Assembly: GCA_963845755.1 (NCBI GenBank)
Contig: CAWJTV010000011.1
Coordinates: 128,001 to 192,000, forward strand
Length of the DNA: 64,000 nt
DNA from: an uncultured Planctomycetota bacterium
GTDB taxonomy: Bacteria; Planctomycetota; Planctomycetia; Isosphaerales; Isosphaeraceae
Reading direction: 5' to 3'
Below, piece by piece: positions 10,370 to 40,382 of the stretch (the stretch's first letter is position 1; every line of letters starts with the position of its first letter). Made by a program: the position numbers and the translations under genes. The notes under the pieces were generated by a model. That model did no database searches. It saw nothing but the letters and a program-made list of their open reading frames with translations, and was not told the origin of the DNA.

Positions 10370-11058
10370 GTGAAAACAAGAGGGGCCGCAAGGTCTACGA
10401 CGATGGGGATTGAAAACACGCTGACTGGTGACGTCGGGGCATCAACAGACGAAATGGCCGATCTGGATCGAGGCTACGATCCCGTTTACGGGAATGATGC
10501 CCATTGTCGCCAGGGAAAAGGGAATCGCCGCGTGGAGACATTGCCCCGCACCGACCGGACACTGACGCTGGCGGTGGCGGCTAAAGAGTACATCTGGCTG
10601 TACGATCGTCGTCACGGAATGAGTATCAACGAGATTGCGGCTCGTGAAGGGCTGAACGTCGACCGGGTGAGGTATGGTCTGAAGCGGCGCGGGCCATCGA
10701 CAAGAAAACCTCGCGGGATGTGCAGTCCGGGCCCTGGAATCAGGATGCCGACATTGTTCATGCTCCCCGGTTGATTCCGCTGTTTCCGATCGGGCCCTAC
10801 ACGCCGCAGTTGACCTGCCCACACCGCGAGGCGATCGAGCAAGGCTCGGCTCTGTGTTGCATGGTCTGCCACAATTCCGGCATGGACGCACACCCTTCAC
10901 TGCGCCGCGACCCGCAAACAGAACCCGCACCCGAGCCCCAGGACGAGCCCGCCCCCGACCTCACCTTGCGATTCAAGACCGGCGAGTCGCTTGAGACTCG
11001 CAAACAACGGCGGCGGCGGATGTTTGCCCAGCAAGCCGCGACAGCCCCGAGCCGTTAG
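10370..11058 (+). CDS. HTH DNA-binding protein with C-terminal Cys/His cluster (frameshift near 10690)
   Basis: GMSINEIAAREGLNVDRVRYGLKR HTH-like segment, continuing in another frame with CPH...CCMVCH...H. Confidence 0.6.
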
Positions 11059-11143
11059 AAATGAGCGCGGGGCCGATCACGTCCTTCCTGATTCCTCCAC
11101 GACTGGCCGCAAGCTCCTTGATCTTCCATCGAGGTATTCGACG

Positions 11144-11590
11144 ATGCCGTTCCAAGCGATTTGGGCCGCGATCCCGAGCCGGCGCACGCTCTTAACCATC
11201 GTGATTTCGAGCCTGCTGGGAGGGGGTCTGGCATTGGGTATCTCGACCTGGTTGGGCTCGCCCATCGGGCCGGTTCCAAGCCCCCGGGCACCGCATGATC
11301 CGCGATTCGTGCGCATCGGCCGGACCTATCTCACCGCTCTCGGCAAGACATACGCCTCGGCCTGGGACGAAGGCGCCAAGGGACTCGATAGCGGCCAGAA
11401 CCTCTCCACCGTGCTCAGTGCCGTCGCCAAGACATGGAGCACGAACCGGACCCAACTCTTTGACCAGATGGTCACTCCAGAATTCGGCAAACTGATCCCG
11501 GAGACGAAGAAAGACACCGACGTCACTCCTCAGGAACGTGCCGCCATGGCCGCGGCCTGGCGGGGATTCGCCCTGGGACTCCAGAAGTAA
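11144..11590 (+). CDS. Hypothetical membrane-anchored protein
   Basis: N-terminal hydrophobic helix LLTIVISSLLGGGLALGISTWL followed by a helical soluble domain. Confidence 0.65.
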   Translation: MPFQAIWAAIPSRRTLLTIVISSLLGGGLALGISTWLGSPIGPVPSPRAPHDPRFVRIGRTYLTALGKTYASAWDEGAKGLDSGQNLSTVLSAVAKTWSTNRTQLFDQMVTPEFGKLIPETKKDTDVTPQERAAMAAAWRGFALGLQK

Positions 11591-11776
11591 TTAGCGGGGA
11601 GCCGATCGTCGGGGCGATCACGAACGCCAAGGCCTCGACGGCTCTCGACCGTGTCGAATCACCGACGACGAAGTCGTTGATTCGACGCAACCGGAATCCT
11701 AGCACGCCTCGGCCGAGAGGTCGTCGATCGCTCCGCGCAACCGAGTCTTGCCACCAACCAGTCTGCTGAACATCAC

Positions 11777-12693
11777 ATGACCGAGAGTCTAAAAATGCTT
11801 GATGATGCAGCATGTATGCCCCTTTGTGGTTGGAGGGGTAGTGACGCCATCCAACAGGCCTTCGCCTGCCAGTTCCCAACACTGGTGCAATCTGCTCCGC
11901 ACCTGATGGCAGCACCCGCGCCTACGGAGCCGGTCCTCCTTTTCAAGGCTTGGCGGGATGTTCTGGGCAAAGACCCGGCCTACCCCGCACAACAGATCGG
12001 CGACTGCGTCTCATTTGGCCATGGGCACGGGAACGACCTCCTCCAGTGCATCGAGATCGGCCTGGGTGAGCCGCTCGTATTCCAGGAGACCGATACCGAG
12101 TTTATTTACGGAACCTCTCGCGAGGTCGCCGGCATCCTCGGGCGTCAGGACGGCTCCTATGGCTCGGCGGCCGTGAAGGCGATGATGACGATCGGTATGG
12201 TCAGCCGGAAGATGTTGGGCTCGGACGGGACCTACTCCGGCCAGCGAGCCAAGGATTGGGGATGGCACGGAGCGCCGGCCGCCGTGAAGAGTGAGGCCGC
12301 GCCATTCAAACTGGGCAACGCCGCGCTGGTCTCGACGTGGGATGAACTGGTCGCGGCCGTCCAGAACGGATACCCCGTCACGATCTGCACGGGTCAAGGA
12401 TTTACCCTGACCCGCGATCTTGATGGATTCTGCAATGCCAGGGGAAGTTGGGGCCACTGCATGTTCATCGCGGGTGTCCGCTTCGACCGGCCGGGAGCCT
12501 GCATCGTCCAGAGTTGGGGGCCGGAGTGTCCCACGGGTCCGACCGCGCTGGGCCAGCCCAGCTTCTCGTTCTGGGCCGATCGGCCGGTCATCGAGCGCAT
12601 CCTGGGACAGGGCGATTCCTGGCGCTATCGAAGTCGCCCGCATTCGAGAAGCGAGACCTGCCTCCCGCATGGCGCTACCATGACGCCGCTTGA
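11777..12693 (+). CDS. Papain-like (C1-type) cysteine peptidase (frameshift near the 3' end)
   Basis: QQIGDCVSFG (oxyanion Gln and catalytic Cys), WGHCMFIAG (His), IVQSWG (NSWG-equivalent). Confidence 0.75.
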
Positions 12694-12749
12694 AGCGCCG
12701 CGAGTGGCTCAAGCCTAAATACAGATTTCAAAAATTGAGGATTTACAAT

Positions 12750-14229: not shown

Positions 14230-14600
14230 TGATCGACGCTCGCTGATTCAGAGGACCAATGCGGCGAGGCGTCGCCGCTTCGAGCCGGATGACGCTTGCC
14301 CGCGACCCAACAACTCGGCTATCTGGCTTACAGCATTCGATGAGTCGTTCCATGTCACCACGACCACGGATTACAAGCCCGGACTTCCCGTGCATCTGGC
14401 CGTCAATCCGGGTGTCCACCGAGGTACCAGCCAGCACGGGCTTCGACCCCGACTCGCCGGCCGGGAACATGTTGCCACAGTTTTCGACAGCTCCTTCGCC
14501 TCAGGAGAGTCCGCCGAAGCCAAGGTCATGCGTATGCGATCCCGAGAACTCCGCAAGGTCGGAATGACCTACGTGATGGGCTCGATGAAGCCGGCGGAGC
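14230..14600 (+). pseudogene. Eroded remnant of terminase large subunit (linker and start of the nuclease domain)
   Basis: Startless open frame SLIQRTNAARRRRFEPDDACPRPNNSAIWLTAFDESFHVTTTTDYKPGLPVHLAVNPGVH...HVATVFDSSFASGESAEAK. It resembles the TerL 'FD..HV...(Y/F)..P.P.hhhDxG' junction and lies directly before the portal; no ATPase domain upstream. Confidence 0.6.
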
Positions 14601-14849
14601 ATTGCCGACTCTGCAACGAGGTGAAAGTAGAGGGCTTCCTGATGCGACTTCGATACTCCTGGCTCGACCTTGTGACGTACCCGATCACCTTTGTGCTCCT
14701 GGCGCCCTGGCCTGGCATTTGGTCCGAATCCTACTCGATTTCCTGGGCTATCCGACCATGGATCGATGACCATCGATCGTGTGGTGCCCGCGGCGCACTC
14801 GACAATCCGGGGTTCGCTGACGACCCTCTTCACCAAGCATTATCACCCT

Positions 14850-16778
14850 ATGCCATTCGACTGGCTCAAGAAATCGACGTCCCCCCAGCCGGGGCGCGGC
14901 ACTAGCCGCGATGGGAGATTCGTGGTGAACACGGATTCGCCCTCGGCCGGGCCGAGGCCTGACGAGGATCTCGACGGCAAGCTCGTCGTCCAGCGCCGGC
15001 ACGTGGACTGGCTCGAGCACCAGATCCGCTGGCGGTGGCTCCTCGACAGCTTCGAGGGGGGAGACCGCTACCGCAACGCGGTCTACGGGCCGGACCGACG
15101 CGGCCTGCCGACGCGGAACCTGTTCCGGCACAAGCGCGAATACCCCGACCCGCAGATGTACCCCAACGTGTACCAGGGGTTCGCCGGGTTCCTGGGGAGC
15201 GTCAACGCGCAGACGCAAGATGTCGGATACGGGCCCTATCCCGGCATGATTGGAGCCGACCCGGCCGCGACGGCGCAGGACGATGACTACGAATACCGGC
15301 GCAGCCGGACGCCCATTCCCGAATTCGTCGCCGAGGCCGTCGAGATCCACATGGCGAAGGTGTACGACCAGGAGGTCGTGCGGGACGGGCCCGACGACCT
15401 CAAGGGATGGTGGAGGGACGTGGACGGCCGCGGCACGCCGATCGACGACTGGATGCGGGAAACGCTCGCCCCACTCCTTCTGGTCCTCGGCTGCATCGAT
15501 GTCTGCCTCGACCATCCCCAGGCGCCACCGGGCGAGACGATCCGCACCCGGGCCGATGAATTGCGATTGGGTCTCGACCGATGCGTCGCCAGCTACATCC
15601 TCCCCGAGAACATGGTCTGGTGGCGAAACGATGCGGCAGGGCGATACCTCGAATGCCTGGTACGCGAATACACGAATCCCTCGGATCGCGTGGATTACGA
15701 TAAGAACGGCAACGCGATCGACCCCCAGGACCCGGGAAACGTCGGCGAAGCGTGGCGGCGGAACTATGTGAGATATCGCCTCTGGCGGCCCACCGAGTCC
15801 ATCCTCTTCTCCTACGATGGGGGCGAGATTATCGAGCGCGTGCCGCATCCGTTCGGCCGCGTGCCGATCGTACGGTTGGTGGACCTCCCGCGGCACCGGA
15901 CCCCACACATCGGCAAATCCCGGTATGAGGCGATCGCCGAGTACCAGCGCGAGTATTACAACCGGGACAGCGAGCTGATCCTTTCCGACACCTTGCAGGC
16001 CCACCCGTTCCTATCCGGGGCGGAAGATTTCTGCAAGAGCGACAACACCCTCTCGGTCGGCCCGGGCTATGTACTCCCGATGAAGAAGAATCCGGAGTCG
16101 GGCTCGTACCAGGGGTGGGAGTTCGTCAGTCCCCCTAAAGACCCGGCTGAGTCGCTACGGCGGAACAAGGAGGACATCGTCGAGATGAAGGATCGCCGGG
16201 CCTGCCTCATGAAGCCGGCTGGAGCTACAGGCTCTTCTACCATCAGCCAGTCCGGGATCTCCAAGCAGCTCGACGCCGTCGCGGGTCACAAGCTATTCGG
16301 CGCCATCGCGAAGTCGCTCGCAAAAGCCGAGCGGTTCCTCGCCGAGTACGCCGCCATGGTGCTCCGGAACGCCCCCATCGGGCGAGAGGAACGGGAGCAG
16401 ATCCGCGTGACTTACCCGGCACGGTTCGAGCTGTTCGCGGCCACAGAGCTGATCGACAACCTCACCAAGCTCCAGGTCACGCTGAAGTCGGCCGGCGAGG
16501 CCCCGAACACCGAGCGCGAGATCCTCCAGGCGATCGTCCGCCAGACGCTCCTTGGCCTGACCGACTCGGAGTACGAGCGGCTTGACGACGAGCTCGAACT
16601 CATGGTCAAGACCAAGTCGCGACTGAAGGAGCCGGTACAGGAGATGGCTGATGCCGGCGTCTCGTCCCAAGCCGAGGCGATGCAAGGACCCGGATCGGCC
16701 GAACAGGCCGCGGGCGAGGACCCCACCGGTCAGTCCGGCGGGACGTTGGTCGGCAACATGATCCCCAGTGTGATGTAA
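14850..16778 (+). CDS. Phage portal protein
   Basis: 642 aa; WWRDVDGRGTPIDDWM, IERVPHPFGRVPIVRL, SGISKQLD, IRVTYPARF (portal-like motifs); acidic/Gly tail; position upstream of scaffold and capsid. Confidence 0.8.
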   Translation: MPFDWLKKSTSPQPGRGTSRDGRFVVNTDSPSAGPRPDEDLDGKLVVQRRHVDWLEHQIRWRWLLDSFEGGDRYRNAVYGPDRRGLPTRNLFRHKREYPDPQMYPNVYQGFAGFLGSVNAQTQDVGYGPYPGMIGADPAATAQDDDYEYRRSRTPIPEFVAEAVEIHMAKVYDQEVVRDGPDDLKGWWRDVDGRGTPIDDWMRETLAPLLLVLGCIDVCLDHPQAPPGETIRTRADELRLGLDRCVASYILPENMVWWRNDAAGRYLECLVREYTNPSDRVDYDKNGNAIDPQDPGNVGEAWRRNYVRYRLWRPTESILFSYDGGEIIERVPHPFGRVPIVRLVDLPRHRTPHIGKSRYEAIAEYQREYYNRDSELILSDTLQAHPFLSGAEDFCKSDNTLSVGPGYVLPMKKNPESGSYQGWEFVSPPKDPAESLRRNKEDIVEMKDRRACLMKPAGATGSSTISQSGISKQLDAVAGHKLFGAIAKSLAKAERFLAEYAAMVLRNAPIGREEREQIRVTYPARFELFAATELIDNLTKLQVTLKSAGEAPNTEREILQAIVRQTLLGLTDSEYERLDDELELMVKTKSRLKEPVQEMADAGVSSQAEAMQGPGSAEQAAGEDPTGQSGGTLVGNMIPSVM

Positions 16779-17114: not shown

Positions 17115-17121
17115 TCGATCG

Positions 17122-18702: not shown

Positions 18703-19452
18703 ATGACCGAAGCGACCCTCTCGACGCCGGTAAACCCGGCAACCCCCGTCCAGGCCACGGCGCCAATGGCGGCCCCGACGGTTTCGTCGGCGACCGCAAC
18801 GACCCAACAGACCGTGACGATCCCGCTCGAGCAGATCCAGGCCTTCACGAGCATGCAAGCCAGGCTGGCACAGCTCGAGATCGAACAGCGGAGCCGCGAT
18901 CAAGCCGCGCAGCAGGAGCAAGCACGGGTTATGGCCGAGAAGGGCCAGGTCGAGAACGCCTTGCGGATGCTCCGCGATCAGTCGGAACAACAAGTGCAAG
19001 CCGAACGGGCGAGGCTCGTGCAGGTCGAGGACCGCGCCAAGCGATATGCCCTGGACGGTGAGTTGTCCCGCGCCCTGGCCGCGTGCAACCTGGTCCCCGG
19101 CGGTGCGGAGCAACTGACTCAACTCTGGCGGAACCAGTTCACCGTCGAAGCTCAGGGGGATAGTTTCACGGTGCGTACGCCGACGTTCCAGTCGGTCGGC
19201 GAGTTCGTCTCTCAGCAGCTTGCCCGTACCGAGTATTCCCATTTCCTCCGGGCCCAGAACCCAGGCGGGGGTACCGGCGGAGTCCAGCCGTCGGCACAGA
19301 CACCACCGAGCACGCCCGCCAACCCGGCCCAGATGCCACAACCGAAGAACATGGGCGAGGCCGTCATCCTTCACATGCAGGGCATGCAAAAAGCCCAGGG
19401 TGACCCGAGGGCCAACATGACCCTGCCGATGGGACTCAAGGCCGCGCGGTAA
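18703..19452 (+). CDS. Capsid scaffolding protein
   Basis: Gln/Glu/Ala-rich coiled coil, 'YSHFLRAQNPGGGTGG' and Pro-rich tail; immediately before the capsid gene. Confidence 0.7.
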   Translation: MTEATLSTPVNPATPVQATAPMAAPTVSSATATTQQTVTIPLEQIQAFTSMQARLAQLEIEQRSRDQAAQQEQARVMAEKGQVENALRMLRDQSEQQVQAERARLVQVEDRAKRYALDGELSRALAACNLVPGGAEQLTQLWRNQFTVEAQGDSFTVRTPTFQSVGEFVSQQLARTEYSHFLRAQNPGGGTGGVQPSAQTPPSTPANPAQMPQPKNMGEAVILHMQGMQKAQGDPRANMTLPMGLKAAR

Positions 19453-19568
19453 TTCCGTCCTAAATCGTTTTCCACTGTCGTTTGATGCCCAAGTGACGGC
19501 CTTCGAGGCCATGCCGGCCGGGTCTAGTGCGACCCGAGAACCGCGGTTGCACTCAGGGACTCCAATCC

Positions 19569-20789
19569 ATGGCCGACTTTTTGCAAGGGTTCCTCGGAAC
19601 TCAGCAAGCTGGTGTCGAGGCACGAAATGATGTTACCGTTGCGATCAGGAATTGGTTTGCTAACCGCAACCCGCTCGTGACCCGCTTGCCGTATGTCCCG
19701 GTCGAGCGTGTCGACTTCCAGATGTACACGCACAAGTACCGGGCGCGGAGCACCACGCTGAATGCCGCGATCTCCAGCAGCTCTCAGACCAGCCTGACGC
19801 TGGCCGACGCCACATTCCTGATGAACCACGACGTCCTGGAGCTGGTCAACCCCAGCGGCAACGTCGAGCGCGTCCAGGTCAGCGGCGATCCGACCAGCCC
19901 GACCACGGTCAACGTGACCCGCGGTCTCTATACCGAGGTCTTGGGGGCGGTCACGCTCCCGAGCGGGTCCAACAACTACGTGACCGGCCTCACCACGTTC
20001 ACGACCGGAAATACCGTCAACCTGATCGGCAACAGCCGGACCGGCGCGGAGGTTCAGCAGACCGGCCTGACCACGATCGGCGTGGCCCGCACGCAGTATT
20101 GCCAGACGTTCCAGTTCCCCGTGCAAATCGGTGGATCGGCCCAGACGGCGCGGGCGCAGGTGATGCCCGGCGGCATCCAGACGCCGTTCGACTTCAACAT
20201 GACCGTCCAGCTTCAGAACATGGTGGACGACATCGAGAACTCCGTCTACTACGGCGTTGCCCAGGCGCCCAGCGACAGCGCCGGCGTCACGGCCAAGATG
20301 AACGGATTGCGGTCGATCTTCGTGACCAACAATATCTCGACCTGGACCAACACGACGCCGGTCAACGCCGCGGCCTATGGCTCGACCGACCTGATCCGCG
20401 ACACGCTCCAGGTGGCCCGGTCCGGCGGCGGCGAGCCGGACCTGCTCGTTGTCTCGACCAATTTCATGAGCGGGTTCGCGACCTGGGGGCAGGCGATCCA
20501 GCGCGTCCCGGCCGGCGAGACCGTCTTCGGCACGCCCATCAACGTCCTGGAGGCGCCGTTCTTGCACGGCGTCACGATCGTCGAAGCCCCGCTGTTGCGG
20601 CCCTACACGGCGATCGCGCTGACCAGCTCCGAGGTCTACATCCGCAACAAGCGGAACCCGTTCTGGCAGCTCCGCGGCAGCCGCGGCGATATGGTCGAGG
20701 GAGACTGGATCGCCGAGCTGGCGATCGAGGTCGTCAACGAGTCTCATCACGCCTGGGTTGAGGGCATCACCGCCTTCAGTGCGAACTGA
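19569..20789 (+). CDS. Major capsid protein (resembles the SU10/DUF5309-type family)
   Basis: 406 aa; RTQYCQTFQFPVQIGGSAQ, MVDDIENSVYYG, KMNGLRSI, GDMVEGDWIAELAIEVVNESHHAWVEGI; highly biased codon usage; follows the scaffold. Confidence 0.8.
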   Translation: MADFLQGFLGTQQAGVEARNDVTVAIRNWFANRNPLVTRLPYVPVERVDFQMYTHKYRARSTTLNAAISSSSQTSLTLADATFLMNHDVLELVNPSGNVERVQVSGDPTSPTTVNVTRGLYTEVLGAVTLPSGSNNYVTGLTTFTTGNTVNLIGNSRTGAEVQQTGLTTIGVARTQYCQTFQFPVQIGGSAQTARAQVMPGGIQTPFDFNMTVQLQNMVDDIENSVYYGVAQAPSDSAGVTAKMNGLRSIFVTNNISTWTNTTPVNAAAYGSTDLIRDTLQVARSGGGEPDLLVVSTNFMSGFATWGQAIQRVPAGETVFGTPINVLEAPFLHGVTIVEAPLLRPYTAIALTSSEVYIRNKRNPFWQLRGSRGDMVEGDWIAELAIEVVNESHHAWVEGITAFSAN

Positions 20790-20930
20790 CGTTCGCACTG
20801 AAGGCGGAAAGGCTGAAGGATTAATAAATTTAGTCTTACTCATCTTTTATCCTTCAGCCTTCAGCCTTCGGCCTTCCTTGAAGAACCCCCATCCGGTCCT
20901 TCGGATCACCTTCCCCCACAAGGGGGAAGG
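20770..20930. repeat. Hairpin complex after capsid gene: 17-bp perfect IR, GAAGGCT/AGCCTTC heptamer IR and REP-like stem
   Basis: CCGCCTTCAGTGCGAAC-tgac-GTTCGCACTGAAGGCGG (20770-20807); 20800-20820 versus 20850-20869; CCTTCCCCC-acaa-GGGGGAAGG (20909-20930). Confidence 0.8.
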
Positions 20931-23366: not shown

Positions 23367-24068
23367 ATGACCCTCAGTGCATCCCTGCCCGAACAGACGA
23401 CGCCCGTTTATTGCACGGACGAGGACATCCTCGTGCATGCCGGCGGCGACTTCATCACGCTCTGCCCTCCCTGGCAACAAATGGCCGCTGGAACCGATGG
23501 GAGCTTCGCCTCTGGGACTCCGTGGGTGCTGACCTCGGCTTCCGTCGACTTCGCCGCAAACGGAGTAAGTGCTAATCAAGTGATCTGGCTGACGGCGCCG
23601 AAGACGCAGTACCCCGGCGGCGGCCAGCTCCTGGCGATCGACAGCGTTTCGGGCAACTCCATCACGCTCAGACGACCGCACAAGGACCTTTACGTCGGCC
23701 AGCCGCCGGCACCCGCCTCGGGTTTGACCACGGTCGCCTTCACCATCAACACCCTCGACCCCCAATCCGAAGAAGCCAGCTTCGACCTCAAGCGACGGTT
23801 CGCCATCGACGACACGGTCGGCGGCGACTTCAGCCGGTCGAGTTCCTGGGTCTACGATCTACGCGACCTCCGGATGGCCACGGTCCTCTCGGTCCTCCAT
23901 GACCGCTACACGCAGGAGACGCGCACGGACAAGGGCGACTACGCGATCAAGATCAAGCGAATCGACCAGCAGCTAAACGACGTCCTGTCTCGCGTCCAGG
24001 TGCGCTGGGGGCCGTTTGGCAATTCGGCCGAGCCGTCCACGCTTTTTAGCTGCAAGCTGAGTCGATAG
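23367..24068 (+). CDS. Putative head-tail connector/adaptor protein
   Basis: N-terminal VYCTDEDI (adaptor-like YxTxxD start), inserted beta domain, helical C-terminus; lies between head and tail genes. Confidence 0.55.
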   Translation: MTLSASLPEQTTPVYCTDEDILVHAGGDFITLCPPWQQMAAGTDGSFASGTPWVLTSASVDFAANGVSANQVIWLTAPKTQYPGGGQLLAIDSVSGNSITLRRPHKDLYVGQPPAPASGLTTVAFTINTLDPQSEEASFDLKRRFAIDDTVGGDFSRSSSWVYDLRDLRMATVLSVLHDRYTQETRTDKGDYAIKIKRIDQQLNDVLSRVQVRWGPFGNSAEPSTLFSCKLSR

Positions 24069-24149: not shown

Positions 24150-24608
24150 ATGGCTGCCTTGCAAGGCCAGGTCGCTTTCGGCGCCGGCGCGACCTGCCCG
24201 CTCAGTGCCGGGATCCCCAGGACTCCGGTCTCGGTCTCGGCACCCAGCAACCAGCGGCTCAAGATCCTCGGCTACGGATTCTTCTTCGACGGCACTCTCA
24301 ACTCGGCCCAACCGGTCGAGATCGACATCAAGAGGGCAACGGCCGCGGGGTCCGGCACCACGGCGACTCCTCAGCCTAATGAAGGGGAACTTACCGAGAC
24401 GTTCCAGTCTTCCTGGTTGATCGATTGCACGACTGAGCCGACCTACACCAGCACATTGAAAACGATCACGGTCCACCCCCAACTTGGCTACGAGTACCTG
24501 GCCCCGGTCGGCCAGGAGATCATCGTCAAAGGGGGCGGCATCCTGGGATTCCAGGCGAACGCCCCGGCGGCGGTGAACATTCGCGGTTATGTGATGTACG
24601 AGGAGTAA
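24150..24608 (+). CDS. Putative virion structural protein
   Basis: 152 aa, beta-rich, ends in VNIRGYVMYEE; operon context. Confidence 0.55.
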   Translation: MAALQGQVAFGAGATCPLSAGIPRTPVSVSAPSNQRLKILGYGFFFDGTLNSAQPVEIDIKRATAAGSGTTATPQPNEGELTETFQSSWLIDCTTEPTYTSTLKTITVHPQLGYEYLAPVGQEIIVKGGGILGFQANAPAAVNIRGYVMYEE

Positions 24609-24612
24609 GCCG

Positions 24613-25473: not shown

Positions 25474-25491
25474 TCCAGAGGATGCGACTCC

Positions 25492-26981: not shown

Positions 26982-27024
26982 GCCCCTCGACCGAAACCCA
27001 ACCCCGCACCTCGAGGGAATCTCC

Positions 27025-30000: not shown

Positions 30001-31478
30001 CCGAAGCAACGACCGCATTGCCCCACGGCCTCAAGACGGGACAGCAAATCTCCTGGGTCGGCACGGTTGGCGGCACGATCACGGTTCAGGCGCCGGGCGG
30101 CAACGCGGTCAACGTTACCCCTACGACTGCCAGTACCCTCGCGGTATACGTCACCAGTCCGACCACGTTCGCTTTCTGGATGAACTCGAACTCGCTGAAC
30201 AAGGGGTTCGGGATCGCGAGCGTCACGTCCGCGGCGGTCTCGTGTCGCCCTGGTCGGCACCGTCATCGTCCCGGACCAGGGCGTCGTGGCGTACGAGGTC
30301 CCGGCCGACTACTCCAACTATCTGCCGGGCAGCAACCTCCACATCAACATCCCGCACAATGCGACGCTCGCGTGCACCCAGGCCATCGCCGTGCGGCGTG
30401 CTCGCGGTCGTCTCGCCGGACGTGCTGATCGAGGTCGAATTCACGAACGAGCACTGGGACAACACCTTCGTCCGCAACAACATACTGTGGAGCTACGGCA
30501 ACATCTCGGGGCTGTTCCCCACCTCGTCGACGGTCCTCGACCAGATTTACACCCTGAGGGCCTCCCAGGTCCATCAGGCGTTCTTTGACGTCTTCGACGC
30601 AGCAGGGCGCGGCAACCAGATCATCCGGCTATTCGCCGGATTCTGGGTTGAGCCGATCGTCACGACGAATATGTGCGCCTATGCGGCGGCGAACAACATC
30701 CAGATGGATGCCATCGTGATCGCCCCCTATCCGGGCATCCCCAGGGATATACCACTGATCTCAGCCGGCGCCCTGCTGGCGACCTACAGCGCGGACAGCG
30801 TCCTGTTTGGAGCGACCTCGCCGTGGACGCGGCCCATGATGTCCTCGGTCCTCCGGCATCACACCAAATACGGTTCGGACTCAAACCTCTGGGCACAGCA
30901 CGCGTCTGCGATCACCCAGAACTACATCGGTGCGGGAGCGCCCGCCACGCGCTTTGGCCGGTTCCCGGTCATCGGCTGCTACGAGAACTGCGCTCACCCC
31001 CCTCATCCCGACTGGCGTGGACCTGTTCAGTTCGGACGTCAATTCGGTGAGTTTGCGGTCGCAGTTGACGTTTGACCTGCGCTACGACCCGTCGCTCTAC
31101 TCCGCCCAGCATGCGCTCTACGAGTCGGCACAGGACGGCGGGGCGACCTATTGCATCCATTACAACTTCTGCGGGGCGAACAGCACGACGGCCACGCAGT
31201 ACGACGGCCCCAGCGCCCTCAATTATCCCCTCTATACCTGGCTCGGCCAGTTGTGGGGCTACGGGGACGGCTCCGACGGCAAGCCGGTCAACCAATTCGC
31301 CGCGCCCACTTTCGTCACTGCTCATGACTATCAGAACGTCTCGGTGATGGGTCAAGCGTGGCGCGACTGGGCGGACGCGGCCAACACAGCGTTGTTGCCA
31401 CGCCGTGCGAGCAACACGTTGACGAATTGTCGGTGGTTTCCGAAATTGCAACGCCCTGTCGCCCGGATGAGAGCATAA
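27025..31478 (+). CDS. Large fibre/adhesin with [22 protein letters not shown] repeats and a glycoside-hydrolase-like barrel (several frameshifts)
   Basis: At least 6 '[13 protein letters not shown]...G.GYTSAPTV' repeats; motifs [46 protein letters not shown] across ORFs 27224, 27733, 28158, 30286, 30242 and 30930. Confidence 0.65.
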
Positions 31479-31487: not shown

Positions 31488-31943
31488 ATGTCCAGAGAAC
31501 GCGACGTTCGGAACGCCTTACAGACGGCCCTCCTGGCGACCGGTTCGTTCAGCGACGTGTGGCTGAGCGGGCTTCCCGAGGCTTTCGGCCATGGGGTCAG
31601 CGACCTCACAGCGGCGGCGATTGAGCCAGTTGCGAGCGAATTCAGCGCGGGCTGGGATTCGGCTCCCGGTGGCTCGCTCGATTATACGACCACTTTGCGC
31701 GTGACGTTGCTGGCGCGACATCCGGACCCACAACTTCGCGATGAACTCGCTGAGCAACTCCTGAACTATTTGAACGACGCCGTGAACGGACAGGCACTCG
31801 TACCTGGGTACACCGTTCCCCAGAAGACGTCGGTGACTTCTTGGCAATGGCAGACCGCAGTACCCCCGGAACGGCGCATTGTGGCGGTGGCCAGCATCTC
31901 CTACCTGGTCGAAGGTTGGGACAACTTCGACGTCTCTGAATAA
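31488..31943 (+). CDS. Putative tail terminator/completion protein
   Basis: 151 aa, VRNALQTALLAT start, alpha/beta pattern; directly before the tube gene. Confidence 0.55.
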   Translation: MSRERDVRNALQTALLATGSFSDVWLSGLPEAFGHGVSDLTAAAIEPVASEFSAGWDSAPGGSLDYTTTLRVTLLARHPDPQLRDELAEQLLNYLNDAVNGQALVPGYTVPQKTSVTSWQWQTAVPPERRIVAVASISYLVEGWDNFDVSE

Positions 31944-31955: not shown

Positions 31956-32371
31956 ATGTCAGCAACGGCACTTCAGCTAAATTGGAGTTCTGTCGAGTTC
32001 GCCTCGACACCTCTTACTCGCGTTACCGCGATCATGTTCGATCAGGGCGGCGAGCTGATCGAGTTCGCCGGCGACAACGACCGGTATCCCGTCGTCATCG
32101 CCAATCCGATGAACCGTCCTCGATGCTCGATTACCTCCGCCGATGTCGCGACCTTGATGGGGATCGCGCCGGGGACGTCGGGGACAATCACCGCAACCCA
32201 GGTCGATGCGCTCGAGGCCACCGGCGGATCGATCGTCTGGTGCTCGCCAATGCCGTACACGAGAGCACACAAGACACAGGGCCGTTCGGCCAATTCGCCA
32301 CGGCGACGGCGACGTTCCGGGCCTACAGCAGCGATGGGGCGACAAATCCGCTCAGCTTTACTCGTTCGTAG
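31956..32371 (+). CDS. Putative major tail tube protein (frameshift near 32240)
   Basis: About 138 aa joined, beta-rich, ending LANAVHESTQDTGPFGQFATATATFRAYSSDGATNPLSFTRS; followed by a hairpin and the chaperone genes. Confidence 0.6.
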
Positions 32372-33246: not shown

Positions 33247-33407
33247 CCCTGCTCGCCAACGGGTCCCTCCCACCGCTGATACTGCTCGAAGACGCGAACG
33301 ACCTCCTCGACTTCTTCGAGGCAACCGGCCAAACGATACCTCGGACGAAATGGGCCATCGAATCGATAGCCGCTGTGCAGCGGCGCAACCTTGAGGCGAT
33401 GTTCTGA
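33216..33407 (+). other. Programmed -1 frameshift site C CCA AAA (33216-33222) and gpGT-like extension
   Basis: X XXY YYZ heptamer in the correct phase; the -1 frame stays open (TWVRWRKLTLLANG...NLEAMF) to a TGA overlapping the tape-measure ATG. Confidence 0.75.
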
Positions 33408-34681
33408 TGGACAAACCCGAGTCGATCATCCCGGTCCGGTTCGCATACAAGAATGCAGCCCAGGAATTGAAGAAAGTCGAGCAGGGCGGCCAACAGATCG
33501 CCGATACGACTACCAATTGTTTCCAGAGTGCATTCCATACCGCCAAGAATCTCGGGAGCGAGATGAGCGATTTGATCCGTCCCCGATTGGGTCCCGAGAC
33601 TGCCAACCAGATCGCCGGAACGAGCTCCGACCAGTTCCAACAGACGCTCGACTATATCAAAGGCGTTTCCACGGAATTCGCCGATCTTCAGCGGACCGTC
33701 CACCAAGTTGCCGCTCTGAAGGGGCGGGGCCAGACCAGCGATTTGTCCCTCTCCGAGATGCAAGAGGTCGCCGCGCCAGGGCCGCGCCAAGAGGAATGGC
33801 ACAGCACTCAGGAGAAAGCCCAGGTGCGCGCCGGCATTCACCTTGATGGCAGCCAGGGAGGGCTCAGCCAGCAACAGTTGCAGACCTACCAGCAGCAAAT
33901 CGCCAAATTCGCCGAGGACCGGGGGATTGTCCCAGCCCAGGCGATGGCGATAGGTGAAAGTCTCCTACGAACCTCGAAAGGGCCTCAAGACGTCAACCAG
34001 CTCCTCGACCGCTACGGGAAAGTATTCCAGACCCTCGAGAGAGCAACTTCGCCCGTCACCCAGATCCTACCGCAATTGAACCGAGCCGTATCCCAGGGAT
34101 TCTCGCCCGAGCAGGCTGCACAGGCGCTGGCATTCCTGTCGGAGGCAGTGCCCGGCGAGGAAGGGCCTGGGGGCGAACACACCCTCAAGGACCTGACCAA
34201 TGCAGAGCTGCAAGCGAAGGGCCCCGAGCTCGGCATTCAGGAAGGCATGACGCCGAGTAAGTACCGCACCAGCGCCATCGGCCGGTCGGCGCAGGCACCG
34301 GCTGAGTTGCGCATCGGAAGACCGAGCAGGGCTACCAGTTCCGAGCCGTAGAACAACCTCACCTCGAGGCCGACCGACGGCTTATCGACCGAGGGCGGTT
34401 GACGGAGCCCGACTGGAACTCCGGAGCGGGAGAGTTCATGCCCGGCGTAGGTTGCTCGCTGGGGCAGGGTGTTCAACTTCCGCTCGCCGTCCAAGGTCCG
34501 CGGCCAGTTCGGGGGGAGCATTGCAGCCGACAGCGGGACCGCTGCCCTTGGGACCGTGGCGATGACCGCTCGCTTCCAGGAACTACTCGAACGGATCGCC
34601 CACTCGAACGAGAAAATGGCCCGTCATGCCGAGGGTCGGCCGCTTGTGGCCCCGCCTCCCAATCCTCCCGGCCGCATGTAA
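33407..34681 (+). CDS. Tape-measure-like protein, short and apparently internally deleted or degenerate
   Basis: Ala/Gln-rich helical 314-aa ORF (33407-34351) after the chaperones; TMP-like C-terminal fragment (ELLERIAHSNEKMAR..PLVAPPP) in 34469-34681. Confidence 0.6.
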
Positions 34682-34925
34682 ACTGACCGCCAATGGCCGG
34701 CTCACCCTGAATTGGGGCCTCGATGCAGCCTCGTTCTCGTGTGTTGCTTTCCGACGACATCGTCCTCGCAGGCGAATGACTTGCCCGCGCTGGTCGGCCA
34801 GAGAAAGTCACAGAATGAGCCCTTCGTCCACGGCGAAACCGATGACGACACCGACATGATCATCGAGATCACTTATCAAAACCTGAACTTTTCCATTCAA
34901 CACATCTAACGGTCAGGCCGTAATT

Positions 34926-35302
34926 ATGGGTGTCGAATCTTACGGGGGTGTGGACATTTTGGCGCAGCCGTCCACATCCAGCACATTCCGCGTTCCAATG
35001 CTCAACAGGTCGACTCGTTCAACGGGACCAACGGCAACGTGACCCTTTTCGCAGGAACGCGCGGCCGCACCTTCGAAGTCACAGGACTCCTGATCGGCAA
35101 GGACATACCGAGCCTGCTGGCCGCCGAGGCGAATCTCCTCTCATATGCCGATGGCATAGTACGTATACTTGTTGATCCTATTGGGCGGATATTCCCCGAC
35201 GTCATTTTCCAGGGGGAGTACCTGCCGTCCCCCGAGGGTCCCAAGTGGACGGATTCGGGCGTGTGTTTGCCTTATCGCGCTGTGTTCTATGGATTGACCT
35301 GA
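34926..35302 (+). CDS. Putative distal tail protein (frameshift near 34960)
   Basis: MGVESYGGVDI / GAAVHIQHIP..FAGTRGRTFEVTGLL..PYRAVFYGLT; follows the tape measure. Confidence 0.55.
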
Positions 35303-36641: not shown

Positions 36642-38840
36642 ATGGCCGGGAGCTTTGACCTCGATAACTCGACGCCGCCTCTCTACGGCAACCCCTTGGT
36701 ATTTGGGGTCTACCTGTACGAGCCGAAGAATGACAATGCGGGGAACAACGAGAATCCCACGACGCTGCTACCGAATCTACGATGCCTGCGCATCGACTAT
36801 CGCGAGGGCCCAGAGCCACCGACCGCCGAGTTCCAATACATCCTCGACGACTCGCTGGCGCTCAGATTCGGCTGGCCCTCGCAGTTCGAGGATATCTGGC
36901 CCATCGACGCGCAAGGGCCGTACGTCGTTCTGCCTGATGACCGGCTGGTCGTAATGGGCCAGAACCCTGATGGGTCGCCCCTGATCCTCTTCGACGGGTT
37001 TGCCCAGATCCCTCAGGTGGATCTAACCCCGCAGACCCAACGCGTGATGTTCACCGCGGTGGGAGTCGCGGTGCGATGCTACGATGACGTGATTCACACG
37101 CGCGTCCAGCGTGACGCGGATACACCGAATCTCACCGACGGGAGTGCTGACGTCGAGATCCACGCACCCTGCCGGTTCAACCCAGCGGACAACTCGATCG
37201 GCACGCAGGGAGGAATCCTCGCGAATTCGACTCCGGACGAGTTCTATACCTTCGATGAGGAGACCGGGAACTACCCCGTATTCATCGACCCGCTGCTCAT
37301 AGAGCGGGAGGAGTCGGCGGGGGAGGATTACGTTGCGCCCTGGTACATAAGCGACGCGATCCTGTACCTTCTCGCACAGCCGAATCCCGGTGACGACTAT
37401 GTGCTGTGGCCGAACTCGACGACGATCATGCAGTTCCTGGACACGCTCGCGCCGCCGGCCGGAAGCGATATCCTCAACCCGGCAACCGCCGTCTCGACCA
37501 ACTGCGTGATCCGCGACTACGATGCGACGGGAAAGGCCCTCCCGGAGGTGCTCGCCGACCTGCTGGGCTATGCTGGCTTCCTCATGACCTGGCAGGTCGA
37601 TGCCGACGCGTCCGGAACTCCCCAGACGTTCTTGAAGATCTACCGGCGAGACGCCGCGGCGACCCTCACACCCAAGCTCGTCTACCTGGCGCCAGCCCGG
37701 ACGGGAACTCTGGACCCGTCGGCCAACAACGTCACGCATCTTCACCTGGCGCACGACGCGAACCAGATTGTCAACGCCTGGCGTGTCGAGACGGAGCAAC
37801 GACAGATCGAGGTCAGTGTCTTGCTCGCACCGCTCTTCGAGCCGGCGTCCGGGGACCAGGAATCGGCAAATCGCAAGCAGTTCTTCGCATCGTCGTTCAC
37901 CCCCTCAACATTAGCTGCAACCCGGCGGAAGTACCGGTGGTACGGCGCCGATGAGTGCGGGGATGGACACTACAATCAGGCGACACAGGAGTGGTCCGTC
38001 GAGGCCCTCGACCTCTCGCCAGTATTTCCCAAAACGGAAACGAACACCAAGAGTTACGTCACACGATACCGTCCCGGTTTGAACACCCTGATTGCAACCG
38101 ACTCGGATGGACGGCCACTACGTGCGACGCTCGAGATTCTCTTCGGGACCTATAGCGGAGACTCGTCGGTTCAGCCTGAGGCAAGCAACTCCAACTGGCA
38201 GGTCGTTACCGGAGGGTGGCGGCTCCTGCCCGACCGGCTCGGGATCGAAGTGACCGTGGAGGATCCCGAGCAGTGGAACGGTGGAAAGGTCGTCGGCGAT
38301 ATACGGGGTATCACATGGCAAGTCGTCCCGCCCTCGGGCAAGCAGTTCAGCCTACGTCTAACCACGATCATCGAGGATGACCGGCGTATCGATGCGATAG
38401 CGCCGAAGCGGATCGCCTCGCCGACGCAGTTTTCCCGATGGCGTTCTGCCGATGCCCGCGACCACTTCCAGTACACAAGCATTTCCGCGGGAAGCCGTAA
38501 CTACCAGCAGGCCGGCGGGGACGGCACCAACCCGGTCGTCATCCGTGACGACACGGAAGCGGCGACGACACACGCGGAGCAGCTCCGCTCGGCTTACGAA
38601 TTCCCGCCGCTAGCCGGCAGCCTGACCATCCCCTACATCACGACCTACTATGAGGTCGGCGACCGCATCCGCGAGATCGGCGGCCGAGACGCCAATCTCC
38701 AGACCAACGTAGGCTCCGATCAAGGCGAATCCCCGACTTACCCCTGGATTGTCGGCGTGTCCTGGACGTTCGAGGCGGATCGACAGCAGACCGTGCTCCA
38801 GCTCTCGGATCACAGGGCCTCCACCCGGCATAATGGGTAG
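36642..38840 (+). CDS. Putative baseplate hub / tail-tip protein
   Basis: 732 aa, acidic; ILFDGFAQIPQ, LPEVLADLLGYAGF, YEVGDRIREIGGR..IVGVSWTFE..QTVLQLSD (hub-like C-terminal barrel). Confidence 0.65.
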   Translation: MAGSFDLDNSTPPLYGNPLVFGVYLYEPKNDNAGNNENPTTLLPNLRCLRIDYREGPEPPTAEFQYILDDSLALRFGWPSQFEDIWPIDAQGPYVVLPDDRLVVMGQNPDGSPLILFDGFAQIPQVDLTPQTQRVMFTAVGVAVRCYDDVIHTRVQRDADTPNLTDGSADVEIHAPCRFNPADNSIGTQGGILANSTPDEFYTFDEETGNYPVFIDPLLIEREESAGEDYVAPWYISDAILYLLAQPNPGDDYVLWPNSTTIMQFLDTLAPPAGSDILNPATAVSTNCVIRDYDATGKALPEVLADLLGYAGFLMTWQVDADASGTPQTFLKIYRRDAAATLTPKLVYLAPARTGTLDPSANNVTHLHLAHDANQIVNAWRVETEQRQIEVSVLLAPLFEPASGDQESANRKQFFASSFTPSTLAATRRKYRWYGADECGDGHYNQATQEWSVEALDLSPVFPKTETNTKSYVTRYRPGLNTLIATDSDGRPLRATLEILFGTYSGDSSVQPEASNSNWQVVTGGWRLLPDRLGIEVTVEDPEQWNGGKVVGDIRGITWQVVPPSGKQFSLRLTTIIEDDRRIDAIAPKRIASPTQFSRWRSADARDHFQYTSISAGSRNYQQAGGDGTNPVVIRDDTEAATTHAEQLRSAYEFPPLAGSLTIPYITTYYEVGDRIREIGGRDANLQTNVGSDQGESPTYPWIVGVSWTFEADRQQTVLQLSDHRASTRHNG

Positions 38841-38909
38841 CTGCCTGTTCCCAGTTAAGGGGACTCGCGTTCGCTGACAACTGGCAAACGGCAACAGAGA
38901 AATCCAAAC

Positions 38910-39236
38910 ATGACTGATTTGCGAGTGATCCGTGACCGTCCAAAAGCTGGAGAGAAGACGATCAACCGCGAGCCGGGACTCGCACCTGTAGGGTCAGTAG
39001 CAATCCTGGCGCAGACGACGACGGTCTCGACCTACCCGACGACCGCGTCGGCATTCTACGCGTGTGTGCCTGCGGACATAGACGGCAACGAGTCTGAGGG
39101 GTCATCGGCAACGTATGTCCAGGAGGAAACGACGATCCTTTACGCCTGGAATGCCGGTACGCAGGTCCCCCCGGCAGGCACAACGGTCGTGTGCGATGCC
39201 GTCGGCGGCCGGTGGGTCTTCCGCTACGACGGATGA
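38910..39236 (+). CDS. Small tail-tip protein, paralog of the N-terminal half of 39351-40073
   Basis: Shared LRxxRDR, PA(D/E)(I/L)DGxExEG, PxAG and AVGGRWV motifs. Confidence 0.6.
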   Translation: MTDLRVIRDRPKAGEKTINREPGLAPVGSVAILAQTTTVSTYPTTASAFYACVPADIDGNESEGSSATYVQEETTILYAWNAGTQVPPAGTTVVCDAVGGRWVFRYDG

Positions 39237-39350
39237 GGTTTCACACGGATGCTTTATTGGTCCTCAGATAGATGAAAACTTGATCATAATTTTTAAATCA
39301 GAGACTCGAGGACTCATTCCCGAGGTGTGAAACCCGGGATAGTATAACCG

Positions 39351-40073
39351 ATGGTTAGCGACCGAGAACTTAGGATCCTTCGCGACCGCCAGGCTGCTTT
39401 GAGCGGAGCGATTGATCGTGTTGCGGAGGCTTCGACGCGGGTCACAGCGCGACGGATGGTCCAGGTCTACGACGGCGGAAGCATGCCGACACAGCCGGGC
39501 TACGTCTACTTGACCCATCCAGCCGAACTGGACGGCAAAGAGATTGAAGGCGGATCGGGGATCGTGAACGTGGATACCTCCACGACGATACCCGTCGTCG
39601 TACTCTGGGGCACACCTCAGGCTGGCGACATCCTCACGGCCTGTGCAGTCGGCGGACGGTGGGTCGCCTATCGGTCGGGTACGTCGATCCATTCGGGCTA
39701 CTCGTGTGGTCAGTGTCAGATCCCTCGGCAGAATCTCACGGTTTCCTGGACGAACCTGATCCTAGGCAACGGGGCGACCTCGCTAGTCTACTCCGGCAAT
39801 CCGACGACACAATGGGCATCCGCTTGCACGAACCAGCTCCTATACGAGCTGGTCTGCACCCAGAATCAGGTCGAATTCCGAGTTTACTATTTCGTGTCGG
39901 GCTCTTGTCCCAGTGGACAGAGTCAGTATTGCTCAACGATACGATCAAATCCTTTCAGATTGACCCAAACCAGCCTGACGTGCAGTCCGCTACTTCTCAC
40001 ATGCAGCGTGACCTCGGCGAGCTGCCCAAACCTCGCATCCAATGGTTACACCAGCTTCACGGTCTCGCAATGA
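39351..40073 (+). CDS. Tail-tip protein with Cys-rich C-terminal domain
   Basis: AVGGRWV domain followed by about 125 aa containing 9 Cys. Confidence 0.6.
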   Translation: MVSDRELRILRDRQAALSGAIDRVAEASTRVTARRMVQVYDGGSMPTQPGYVYLTHPAELDGKEIEGGSGIVNVDTSTTIPVVVLWGTPQAGDILTACAVGGRWVAYRSGTSIHSGYSCGQCQIPRQNLTVSWTNLILGNGATSLVYSGNPTTQWASACTNQLLYELVCTQNQVEFRVYYFVSGSCPSGQSQYCSTIRSNPFRLTQTSLTCSPLLLTCSVTSASCPNLASNGYTSFTVSQ

Positions 40074-40382
40074 ATGGGTCGGAAGGCATTGGCAGGCTTA
40101 AGGATGATTCAAACCAGTCTTGATTCAGTTTTTGACCTTCAGCCTTCAGCCTTCCGAAACTCCCAACCCGGGCTGTGTGTCCATTGCCCGGTAGCCCAGA
40201 ATCTGTCCTGTCGGGGCGAGTCCGTGCGCCGGCTTTGCATGCTCGTTAACCCTGGGCATCCCGATTATGCGCCGAGATATATCGCAGCGATCCTGGGCCT
40301 GCGCAGCCAAGTGGATCCGACGAGGCACACAGTGCTGAACGACCTGACGTCGCCGAGACTTTGTCCTTGCTCGGAGCCATGA
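40074..40382 (+). CDS. Small Cys-rich hypothetical protein (5' end overlaps the repeat, start uncertain)
   Basis: CVHCPVAQNLSCRGESVRRLCMLVNPGHPDY. Confidence 0.4.
   Translation: MGRKALAGLRMIQTSLDSVFDLQPSAFRNSQPGLCVHCPVAQNLSCRGESVRRLCMLVNPGHPDYAPRYIAAILGLRSQVDPTRHTVLNDLTSPRLCPCSEP
40080..40156. repeat. Third GAAGGC/GCCTTC heptamer inverted repeat
   Basis: CGGAAGGCATTGGCAGGCTTAAGG...CCTTCAGCCTTCAGCCTTCCG. Confidence 0.6.

Follow-up and report, generated by a model that had tools for sequence, protein, structure and literature searches.

A block of phage-type virion genes occupies positions 10370 to about 40100 of the 64,000-nucleotide stretch analyzed here (the window), which belongs to the genome of an uncultured Isosphaeraceae bacterium (Planctomycetota). 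We consider it probable that this cluster is a vertically inherited, selected particle locus resembling a gene transfer agent (GTA; a "viriform") rather than a resident prophage, and that it would need a terminase supplied in trans. With similar, moderate confidence, we regard its genes as phage-derived, encoding a siphovirus-like particle, and inherited at one site within a clade of large-genome Isosphaeraceae. In what follows, G000 is the window's genome (88% complete, 49 contigs), G001 belongs to the same genus, G067 and G068 to another genus, and G015 to a third. C denotes a contig of the labelled genome and L a fetched locus.

Nearly all credible open reading frames (ORFs) across approximately 10370-40100 lie on the plus strand and include portal, scaffold, capsid, and fibre-like genes (Table 1), as expected from the one-strand virion block described in the initial annotation. 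We scanned 51 window ORFs against Pfam, PHROGs, and NCBIfam. Phage matches were exclusively structural, and these ORFs yielded no integrase, repressor, or replication family. No tRNA was found in the window, and none of the 20 largest of at least 60 direct-repeat families joined both borders in the manner of an att-like repeat. These absences, which had been noted at the outset, are borne out by the family scans and repeat listing and leave a structural cluster without genes for integration, replication, or lysogeny control, as expected of a GTA. A PF00589 integrase was found elsewhere in G000, in a prophage remnant, so such genes are detectable in this genome. The block is flanked directly by ordinary host genes, again as first described, with an ABC transporter on the left and a pentapeptide protein followed by a sigma factor on the right. 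Base composition did not distinguish the cluster from its flanks.

Conservation of the site and selection on its genes

The window was collinear with contigs C33 of G067 and C4 of G068 from the LysM/hydrolase genes on the left through the peptidase/acyltransferase genes on the right, the fibre region excepted. In G015, where the locus is divided between two contigs, the left side has the ABC transporter and the right side has the genes for pentapeptide protein, sigma factor, and M32 peptidase. Both flanks are therefore shared, and identical host genes enclose the cluster in three further genomes, which represent two additional genera. To place these cases in context, we surveyed one genome per species and fetched 74 related loci with 10-kb flanks. 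The window type accounted for 23 of the 74, with portal identities of 54-89% (best aligned segment), and eight of these showed DLH2 and/or ABC genes in the left flank within the 10 kb fetched.

Selection was assessed by pairwise ratios of nonsynonymous to synonymous substitution rates (dN/dS, NG86), related sequences being non-independent in such comparisons. Between the window and G067 or G068, respectively, ratios were 0.07 and 0.13 for the portal, 0.09 and 0.14 for the capsid, 0.10 and 0.12 for the scaffold, and 0.10 and 0.15 for the putative tail hub. Flanking host genes gave 0.09 and 0.11 (ABC), 0.10 and 0.08 (DLH2), 0.08-0.13 (M32), and 0.26 and 0.24 (sigma). In these pairs, dS ranged over 0.6-2.4 for cluster genes and 0.65-1.6 for flanking genes. 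Loci lacking a terminase gene were similar: L078 and L155 differed with ratios of 0.09 (portal) and 0.055 (capsid) at dS 0.75-1.3, and L083 and L082 with a portal ratio of 0.046 at dS 0.37. Clusters reduced to head genes were compared between G020 and two Tautonia loci, where terminase (0.075 and 0.09), portal (0.09 and 0.12), and capsid (0.10 and 0.14) resembled the flanking KAS (0.10 and 0.15) and FAD (0.19 and 0.20) genes. Against the nearer Tautonia locus, dS was 0.33-0.76 in the cluster and 0.49-0.96 in the flanks. Across these four kinds of pairs, core genes fell at 0.05-0.25, far below neutrality, equal to the host flanks, and in keeping with the purifying selection expected of a GTA. 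Cluster genes had open frames in G067 and G020, both 99% complete.

Divergence of the cluster also followed that of its surroundings. Portal, capsid, and terminase identities correlated with those of flanking PFK, PPase, and RmlD (Mantel r 0.40-0.83; n = 9-13; 0-6 of 2000 permutations reached r). Conserved sites, flank-like dS, low dN/dS, and relatives without integrases together support the proposal of a vertically inherited, domesticated element, with the shared site and co-divergence anticipated for a GTA.

The cluster is widespread in the family. A profile built from eight portals was searched against 121 Isosphaeraceae genomes and 400 other genomes of the phylum. It matched 94 of the 121, including 37 of the 47 high-quality genomes, and covered 43 of 53 genera. 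Most carriers held one full-length copy, with two copies in six genomes. Outside the family, six of the 400 genomes gave weak matches (E-values of 1e-23 to 1e-42). A hub profile (A4) matched 68 of the 121 family genomes, as a rule within one contig at a distance of 10-25 kb from the portal. The distribution of the portal is not the patchy occurrence at variable loci that the initial annotation had named as evidence against its proposal, and the neutral dN/dS named there was not observed. Neither were the relatives integrase-bearing prophages: no integrase or replication family was found in 132 ORFs around five related clusters, and no integrase in 139 ORFs of six IMG/VR loci.

A second lineage occupies another conserved site in 25 of the 74 loci, all with a large terminase gene (TerL) beside the portal. 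The order at this site is SpoVR, PPase, RmlD, CvpA, S4, PFK, EgtD, an ORF of 111 amino acids (aa), terminase, portal, scaffold, capsid, and a 233-aa protein, with KAS, PSP1, methyltransferase, and FAD enzyme genes on the right side after the 233-aa protein. This second type includes the isolates Tautonia sociabilis GM2012, Tautonia sp. JC769, and Tundrisphaera sp. TA3. Tundrisphaera sp. TA3 carries head and tail genes, and the two Tautonia isolates are head-only. In a FastTree portal tree of 109 rows, loci with the second flanks formed one clade (31 rows, support 99) and window-type loci another (31 rows, support 100).

Terminase loss and candidate sources in trans

The initial annotation credited the cluster with a full head gene set. 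This did not hold for the large terminase, whose gene is absent apart from a 147-codon remnant. Relatives encode a 490-576-aa TerL at the remnant's position, directly upstream of the portal, and the missing 1.2-1.7 kb is a real deletion. Compared with the G067 TerL, the remnant had a dN/dS of 0.35 and its motif HLAIDPG reads HLAVNPG. No small terminase (TerS) was recognised in the window.

Similar losses recur among the relatives. Eight of the 23 window-type loci had a full, common-type TerL beside the portal, one had a partial gene, and two were cut by a contig end. The remainder comprised one Terminase_6N-type gene (G015), six loci with none (no terminase match in the interval from the last membrane ORF, tm13888, to the portal), and five uninformative loci. 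The window itself and IMG/VR locus L155 are further terminase-less cases. In the portal tree, TerL-less L081 was sister to TerL-bearing L088, and the TerL-less window was sister to a group with TerL-bearing L074. Likewise, G068 lacks an in-cluster terminase while its congener G067 has one. These placements indicate several independent losses. The terminase-less L078 and L155 are sisters whose junction region aligns at 77-84%, and this common deletion junction indicates that the loss predates their split and that selection continued afterwards.

Other terminase genes exist in every genome checked. Four further genes or pieces lie in G000 (Table 1), including an intact orphan TerL on C4. It was 93.5% identical to a syntenic copy in G001 (C21:471027-472676), with dN/dS 0.13 and dS 0.30, like its neighbours. 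In a TerL tree, the orphan fell on a long branch within the window-type in-cluster clade (17 rows, support 100), and this placement together with its conservation makes it a plausible trans source of terminase. The same grouping ruled out a leftover of the EgtD-KAS lineage. A recent relocation of the in-cluster gene was ruled out by its 57% identity to the G067 TerL, compared with 88% for the portal. We also considered the Terminase_6N-type orphans as a conserved second locus, but their flanks differ among G000, G001, and G015.

Three further observations concern terminase genes. The contig ends just upstream of the orphan TerL in both G000 and G001, which suggests a repeat there. The intein-bearing terminase on C11 is the closest match in G000 (69-80%) to the in-cluster terminase of G015. 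In G013 (L058:11278-16680), terminase homology occurs in three pieces approximately 1-1.2 kb apart within one long frame running into the portal, an arrangement that suggests two inteins.

Under the GTA-like reading, the sigma-r4-like lead gene would switch on the operon, and portal, scaffold, and SU10-type capsid proteins would assemble proheads. A terminase encoded elsewhere, for which the C4 orphan is the best candidate, would fill them. Connector, tube, tape-measure, and hub proteins would add a non-contractile tail bearing fast-evolving fibres, and the papain-like peptidase and small membrane proteins would free the particles by lysis.

Competing explanations and significance

Several observations weigh against this GTA-like reading. 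Judged from its genes, the window copy has no terminase of its own and would be unable to package DNA alone. The complete packaging set of large and small terminase expected of a GTA is thus missing in cis. G068 has no in-cluster-type terminase anywhere and only a second type, which makes supply in trans tentative. Neither the portal nor the left flank was found in the same-genus G001 (87% complete), whose synteny with the window begins at M32. The portal is absent from 27 of the 121 family genomes, including 10 of the 47 high-quality ones. In addition, 26 more genomes match the portal than the hub, corresponding to head-only clusters of approximately 7-12 kb, Tautonia included. These absences and head-only versions look like erosion. 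The cluster also contains three frameshifts and a tape-measure region with approximately 600 bp lacking a clear frame. As for the low dN/dS values, inter-genus dS is near saturation and NG86 averages both branches. Finally, several IMG/VR lineages branch between the two chromosomal clades, so related true phages exist. This topology of two separate locus clades also suggests two fixations of related elements rather than one translocation. Of the original GTA or domesticated-phage proposal, vertical inheritance and domestication were supported, and the missing terminase, the absence from G001, and the head-only state of about a quarter of carriers qualify it.

The alternative that survives best is a domesticated particle serving something other than gene transfer, such as a PBSX-like killer particle, a protein or empty-capsid device, or a phage decoy. 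We judge it unlikely, although it accounts for several of the results above. If DNA packaging were dispensable, terminase would be lost repeatedly, and this is the pattern of the six window-type loci without the gene, the partial one, the window, and L155, with several independent losses on the portal tree and none of the in-cluster type left in G068. Strong purifying selection on head genes after loss, selection on the head-only clusters of Tautonia, and fast-evolving fibres apparently exchanged with another prophage region fit it equally. Against it, conservation is highest in the portal and scaffold, which are DNA-packaging parts, and TerL is retained beside the portal at each of the 25 loci of the other lineage. 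Terminase genes elsewhere in each genome checked point the same way. Moreover, the tails of tailed phages normally attach only to DNA-filled heads.

Slow decay of a functionless, defective prophage, with conservation due to a low deletion rate and hitch-hiking, is less likely still. The remnant with its altered catalytic motif and raised dN/dS would suit such decay, as would the absences from G001 and 27 family genomes, the loss of the tail part in 26 portal carriers, the IS200 transposases in the copy of G024, and the host genes in that of G015. However, neutrality over a dS of about 1 predicts dN/dS near 1 and many stops, and we observed 0.05-0.2 and open frames. The remnant itself displays relaxed constraint at the same locus (0.35, at 44% identity), next to a portal at 88%.

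The frameshifts and the unclear tape-measure frame would also favor decay. Three cluster genes that form single ORFs in G015 or G024 are split here, at approximately 10687, 21150-21200, and 32241. Splits are as common among the host genes of the window: the ABC transporter (7831-9728, minus strand), a sigma-70 factor (43471-44563), an M32 carboxypeptidase (46575-48165), and, twice, a gene for a 927-aa protein (49560-52280). These are single frames in G015, as is M32 in G001. With five frameshifts in approximately 34 kb of host flanks and three in the 30-kb cluster, the splits are probably assembly indel errors, and we set them aside as evidence of decay. The other approximately 30 cluster genes are intact apart from such assembly-type frameshifts. 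In a separate comparison, four DNA sequencing runs contained only 7-10% of the words of the stretch, and no RNA run was listed for it, which bears on expression in neither direction.

An active or recent temperate phage integrating site-specifically at the same target in related hosts is highly improbable, for although IMG/VR holds 51 related portals, some on phage-like 60-87-kb contigs (TerS, nuclease, intein-bearing TerL), and a similar upstream cassette occurs in elements at other loci (L171, L168-L170), the 51 ORFs scanned include no integrase, excisionase, repressor, or replication gene, the 20 largest repeat families supply no att repeat, there is no tRNA target, the copy is without a terminase, its dS equals that of the flanks, and each locus type forms one portal clade, with one copy per genome in 43 of 53 genera.

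As a tentative extension of the GTA-like reading, the locus could be an independently evolved GTA, the first in Planctomycetota, with an SU10-type head, fixed twice at two chromosomal sites, and with a separable motor. Several lineages, among them G000, would then operate a cluster without terminase by means of a terminase gene located elsewhere, and Tautonia would keep only a selected head-and-terminase module. GTAs have been described from only a handful of lineages, namely Alphaproteobacteria, Bartonella, Brachyspira, Desulfovibrio, and Methanococcus. Full-text literature searches, viewed as titles and abstract openings and with subscription journals and supplements outside their scope, returned no GTA in Planctomycetota or Isosphaeraceae. 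The GTA passages retrieved in this way concerned Alphaproteobacteria or were a reference-list entry, and a passage search of a 2025 review of the phylum returned "phage" once and GTA not at all.

If the GTA-like reading is correct, a selected, family-wide particle locus would be a candidate route for exchanging genes in a phylum whose very large genomes are poorly understood, and one more independent instance of a domesticated virus. It is unusual for the in-cluster terminase to be lost repeatedly while selection continues. This makes it possible to test whether such a particle can work with a motor supplied in trans, or with none, and carriers are available in culture (Tundrisphaera sp. TA3, Tautonia sociabilis, and Tautonia sp. 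JC769).

Gene content and comparison with known systems

Table 1. Features of the particle cluster and other terminase genes of the same genome. Positions refer to the window unless a contig is given. Values of dN/dS are from comparisons with G067 and G068.
Feature	Position	Strand	Evidence and remarks
Host-type intergenic repeat at left border, upstream of lead gene	10295..10360	.	42 blastn-short matches in own genome; many copies in G001
Lead regulator, sigma-70 region-4-like helix-turn-helix (HTH)	10370..11058	+	Two ORFs, frameshift ~10687; NF009175 sigma factor, E 7.8e-4, residues 55-103 (weak)
Conserved 199-aa protein	10991..11590	+	No family match; homologues 43-68% in window-type loci; dN/dS 0.21 vs G067
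Papain-like (clan CA, C1-like) cysteine peptidase, candidate lysin	11777..12718	+	Profile A5 to PDB 3ois_A, E 6.9e-5; papain weakly
Three small membrane-rich ORFs, putatively holin-like	12690-12989, 13055-13579, 13888-14166	+	Hydrophobic stretches in translations; no family match
Large terminase remnant, nuclease-domain part only	14240..14689	+	147 codons vs residues 332-484 of the 576-aa TerL of G067; 44% identity
Portal	14871..16778	+	ORF opens 14691, homology from ~14871; phrog_145, 5.1e-33; 78% to G015, 88% to G067
Conserved ORF between portal and scaffold	17122-17538	+	No family; kept in window-type loci
Weak GT2-like ORF	17739-18629	+	Sub-threshold Pfam GT2, 1e-5 to 2e-4; kept in window-type loci
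Head scaffolding protein	18703..19452	+	phrog_206, 6.3e-10; dN/dS 0.10-0.12
Major capsid protein, SU10 type	19527..20789	+	PF17236, 7.3e-34; phrog_1328; 88% to G067, dN/dS 0.09
Hairpin repeat AAGGCTGAAGG..CCTTCAGCCTT 3' of capsid gene	20809..20869	.	Related copies 32417-32477, 40093-40154; repeat families D9, D16
Head-completion/connector candidates	20956-21367, 21442-22176, 22276-22755	+	20956-21367 frameshifted ~21150-21200; dN/dS 0.15-0.38
Family-wide conserved 233-aa protein, head-tail adaptor candidate	23367..24068	+	Adjoins capsid gene in both element lineages; 38-row alignment A2
Variable fibre/host-recognition region	24150..31478	+	24150-24608; fn3 protein 24613-25473; Gly-rich 25492-26799; repeat-rich 27733-30428; 30242-31478
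Conserved 151-aa protein ("149-aa" family), neck/terminator candidate (from position)	31488..31943	+	Homologues in G015, G067, G068; 27-37% in other lineage
Tail tube candidate	31956..32362	+	Frameshift ~32241; single ORFs of G015, G024 match frame 3 then frame 2; dN/dS 0.09-0.10
Two small conserved ORFs, putative tail assembly chaperone pair (from position)	32505-32843, 32836-33246	+	59-63% to G015; dN/dS 0.13-0.22
Tape-measure-like region	33407..35300	+	314-aa Q-rich ORF, then ~600 bp without clear frame, then 34946-35296
Two putative distal-tail proteins (role from position)	35304-36023, 36020-36640	+	59-60% to G015, 41-42% to G024; precede hub in both lineages
Putative baseplate hub/tail-tip protein, 732 aa, gp27-gp44-VgrG fold	36642..38840	+	AlphaFold pLDDT 83.3; no sequence family
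Two paralogous distal proteins	38910-39236, 39351-40073	+	35% mutual similarity; 60-64% to G015; dN/dS 0.12-0.17
Intact orphan TerL, common type	G000:C4:66877-68421		Full-length
Terminase_6N type, one stop	G000:C28:284666-286084
Terminase pieces	G000:C37:4538-5825
Terminase_6N type with HNH-endonuclease intein	G000:C11:108931-111314 (L041:922-3299)		17-19 kb left of window, amid efflux-pump genes

The initial annotation placed a single HTH gene at the head of the block. In the window this gene is two ORFs, but G067 has a single 241-aa ORF and G015 a single 217-aa ORF, which matches 10508-10687 (frame 2) and 10687-11034 (frame 1). The gene is conserved among window-type loci, and the HTH assignment corresponds to a weak sigma-70 region-4 match. 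In the peptidase that follows, Q72, C77, H227, and W247 are invariant, and dN/dS was 0.10 and 0.09 against G067 and G068. A homologue in IMG/VR locus L196 matched PF00112 (3.3e-7), and the predicted structure of the window protein had a pLDDT of 36. We considered a terminase hidden in the ORFs at 11777-12989 and ruled it out, as the ORF encodes the papain-like peptidase and the terminase remnant lies downstream. The peptidase and three small membrane proteins could form the lysis-like set first described, the lysis role being putative. Only the third membrane ORF is conserved in G015, G067, and G068.

Between lead regulator and terminase, G015 (L022:12557-17311) encodes a CHASE3/PAS histidine kinase, two response regulators, and an ETR1_N-domain protein, and the peptidase cassette occupies the position of these kinase and regulator genes in the window. 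The presence of such host genes within the G015 copy also speaks for a domesticated element. IMG/VR locus L171 (562-11533), whose portal is 46% identical to that of the window, has regulator, peptidase, membrane ORFs, terminase, and portal in a third chromosomal context, beside host genes for FKBP and HlyIII.

Among the head and connector genes, the two ORFs between portal and scaffold had dN/dS of 0.13-0.3. The second connector candidate matched phrog_8040 (head closure) weakly, at 5e-5, and a 171-aa ORF of G015 matched the first in two frames. The 233-aa protein had dN/dS of 0.15 and 0.13 against G067 and G068. Its atlas look-alikes are viral and include one cluster with Mu Gp36 (PF07030) at 0.94, which we take as a lead only. 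Profile searches of PDB sequences gave no match for the portal, 233-aa protein, hub, or tube candidate. At L022:3095-4057 (plus strand) and L022:2913-3960, the capsid gene region of G015 contains a LAGLIDADG homing endonuclease and repeats the N-terminal part of the capsid in two additional short copies, an arrangement suggestive of introns or inteins inserted into a "domesticated" capsid gene.

The tail assignment is anchored by the 732-aa hub, whose structure was modelled from 37 homologues. Its best Foldseek matches were the contractile injection baseplate hub 7b5h_AJ (2.7e-9), the Bxb1 tail tip 9d93, Mu gp44 (1wru), and the T5 tip, and a tblastn search against a phage collection gave no match. 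This fold excludes an earlier podovirus idea, in which a 206-aa and 732-aa pair had been likened in size to T7 gp11/gp12, as the 732-aa protein folds as the baseplate hub of long-tailed systems. No sheath-sized ORF was found in the cluster. A long, non-contractile tail, as first proposed, is therefore plausible, given also the tube and tape-measure candidates. The atlas look-alikes of the tube candidate were likewise viral, with PF06199 (Phage_tail_2) as the nearest named cluster (25% of members, 0.93), again as a lead only. The tape-measure ORF stops after residue 314, where G067 and G015 have ORFs of 521 and 431 aa, and the three have little mutual similarity. The "149-aa" family protein is the last gene of head-only clusters. 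The chaperone-pair candidate region has a 38% homologue in another prophage-like region on C44.

The fibre region matched PF21722 (Gly_rich_2; 2.9e-8), fn3 weakly, and many PHROG fibre and virion-structural families. It was not alignable at the DNA level with G067 or G068 across 24.1-31.5 kb, and short alignable stretches gave dN/dS of 0.5-1.05. In place of the entire region, G067 (L148:4767-11501) has a single 2244-aa LamG-domain protein. The Gly-rich protein has a 78% paralogue on contig C40, in a phage-like region (12000-31999; L046) where it adjoins an S78 prohead protease. Another phage-like region (C44:58000-77999; L047) carries the PF00589 integrase and homologues of window positions 32836-34351. 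The fibre paralogue hints at exchange between phage-like elements of G000.

Host-type repeats inside the block had been noted initially, and these recur elsewhere in the genome, with the repeat at 10295-10360 touching the border. Hairpin tiles at 20840 and 40120 had 14 and 9 other genomic matches, and a regular-expression search of 14.27 Mb found seven strict hairpins, two of them at the cluster. Three genes, those for the capsid, the tube candidate, and the last tail protein, are each followed by this motif, which may act as a terminator, attenuator, or RNA-stabilising element of the operon. A second short repeat, at 5335-5422 in the intergenic region before a hydrolase gene, had 41 matches in G000 and many in G001.

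Comparison with phages revealed only distant relatives. In the phage collection, the portal matched four Pelagibacter phages (HTVC111P, HTVC202P, HTVC026P, and HTVC112P) at 23-25% over approximately 40% of the protein. HTVC111P shares the order terminase, portal, one or two ORFs, scaffold, and capsid, followed by tail and tape-measure genes. However, it is a complete 31.6-kb phage genome with a DnaD domain protein, DNA methyltransferase, lysozyme, and a terminase beside the portal, whereas the window block has neither its replication genes nor a terminase. The nearest of the 51 IMG/VR portal loci belong to the same chromosomal cluster. More distant ones (L187, L190, L192, and L196; portals 32-37%) have an SU10-type capsid and the same head gene order, and L196 encodes a papain-family peptidase just upstream of the terminase, like the window cassette. 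These differ from the window in their TerS (PF03592), nuclease, intein-bearing terminases, many small ORFs, and 60-87-kb contigs, and in the portal tree they fall outside the two chromosomal lineages. The more distant 60-87-kb contigs also carry a tail tube family.

The window also departs from other phage-derived elements, whose features are given here from general knowledge. A temperate prophage would have an integrase with att sites, a repressor, replication genes, and its own terminase, none of which the window displays. F-type tailocins consist of tail genes only, but portal, scaffold, and capsid are present and conserved here. Satellites of the capsid-forming phage-inducible chromosomal island (cf-PICI) type combine an integrase, a primase-replicase, and their own head and packaging genes with a tail taken from a helper. 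They are likewise a poor match, as the window has no integrase or replication genes and has its own tail genes. The head-only clusters of Tautonia resemble cf-PICIs in gene content, but sit between housekeeping genes and co-diverge with them. PBSX of Bacillus is similarly a conserved, non-mobile particle locus equipped with regulatory and lysis genes of its own, but keeps its terminase and a contractile tail, where the window has a remnant and no sheath-sized ORF.

The final comparison is with RcGTA of Rhodobacter capsulatus and its alphaproteobacterial relatives (Rhodogtaviriformidae). RcGTA belongs to a different phylum, has an HK97-type rather than SU10-type (PF17236) capsid, and spans approximately 15 kb rather than 30 kb. 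Further differences are that terminase is missing from the window copy and several relatives and that two lineages sit at two different conserved loci. Nonetheless, both are one-strand chromosomal head-tail clusters without integrase or replication genes, inherited vertically, syntenic, and under purifying selection. In both, the tail is siphovirus-like with a hub, and further genes needed for the particle may sit elsewhere in the genome.

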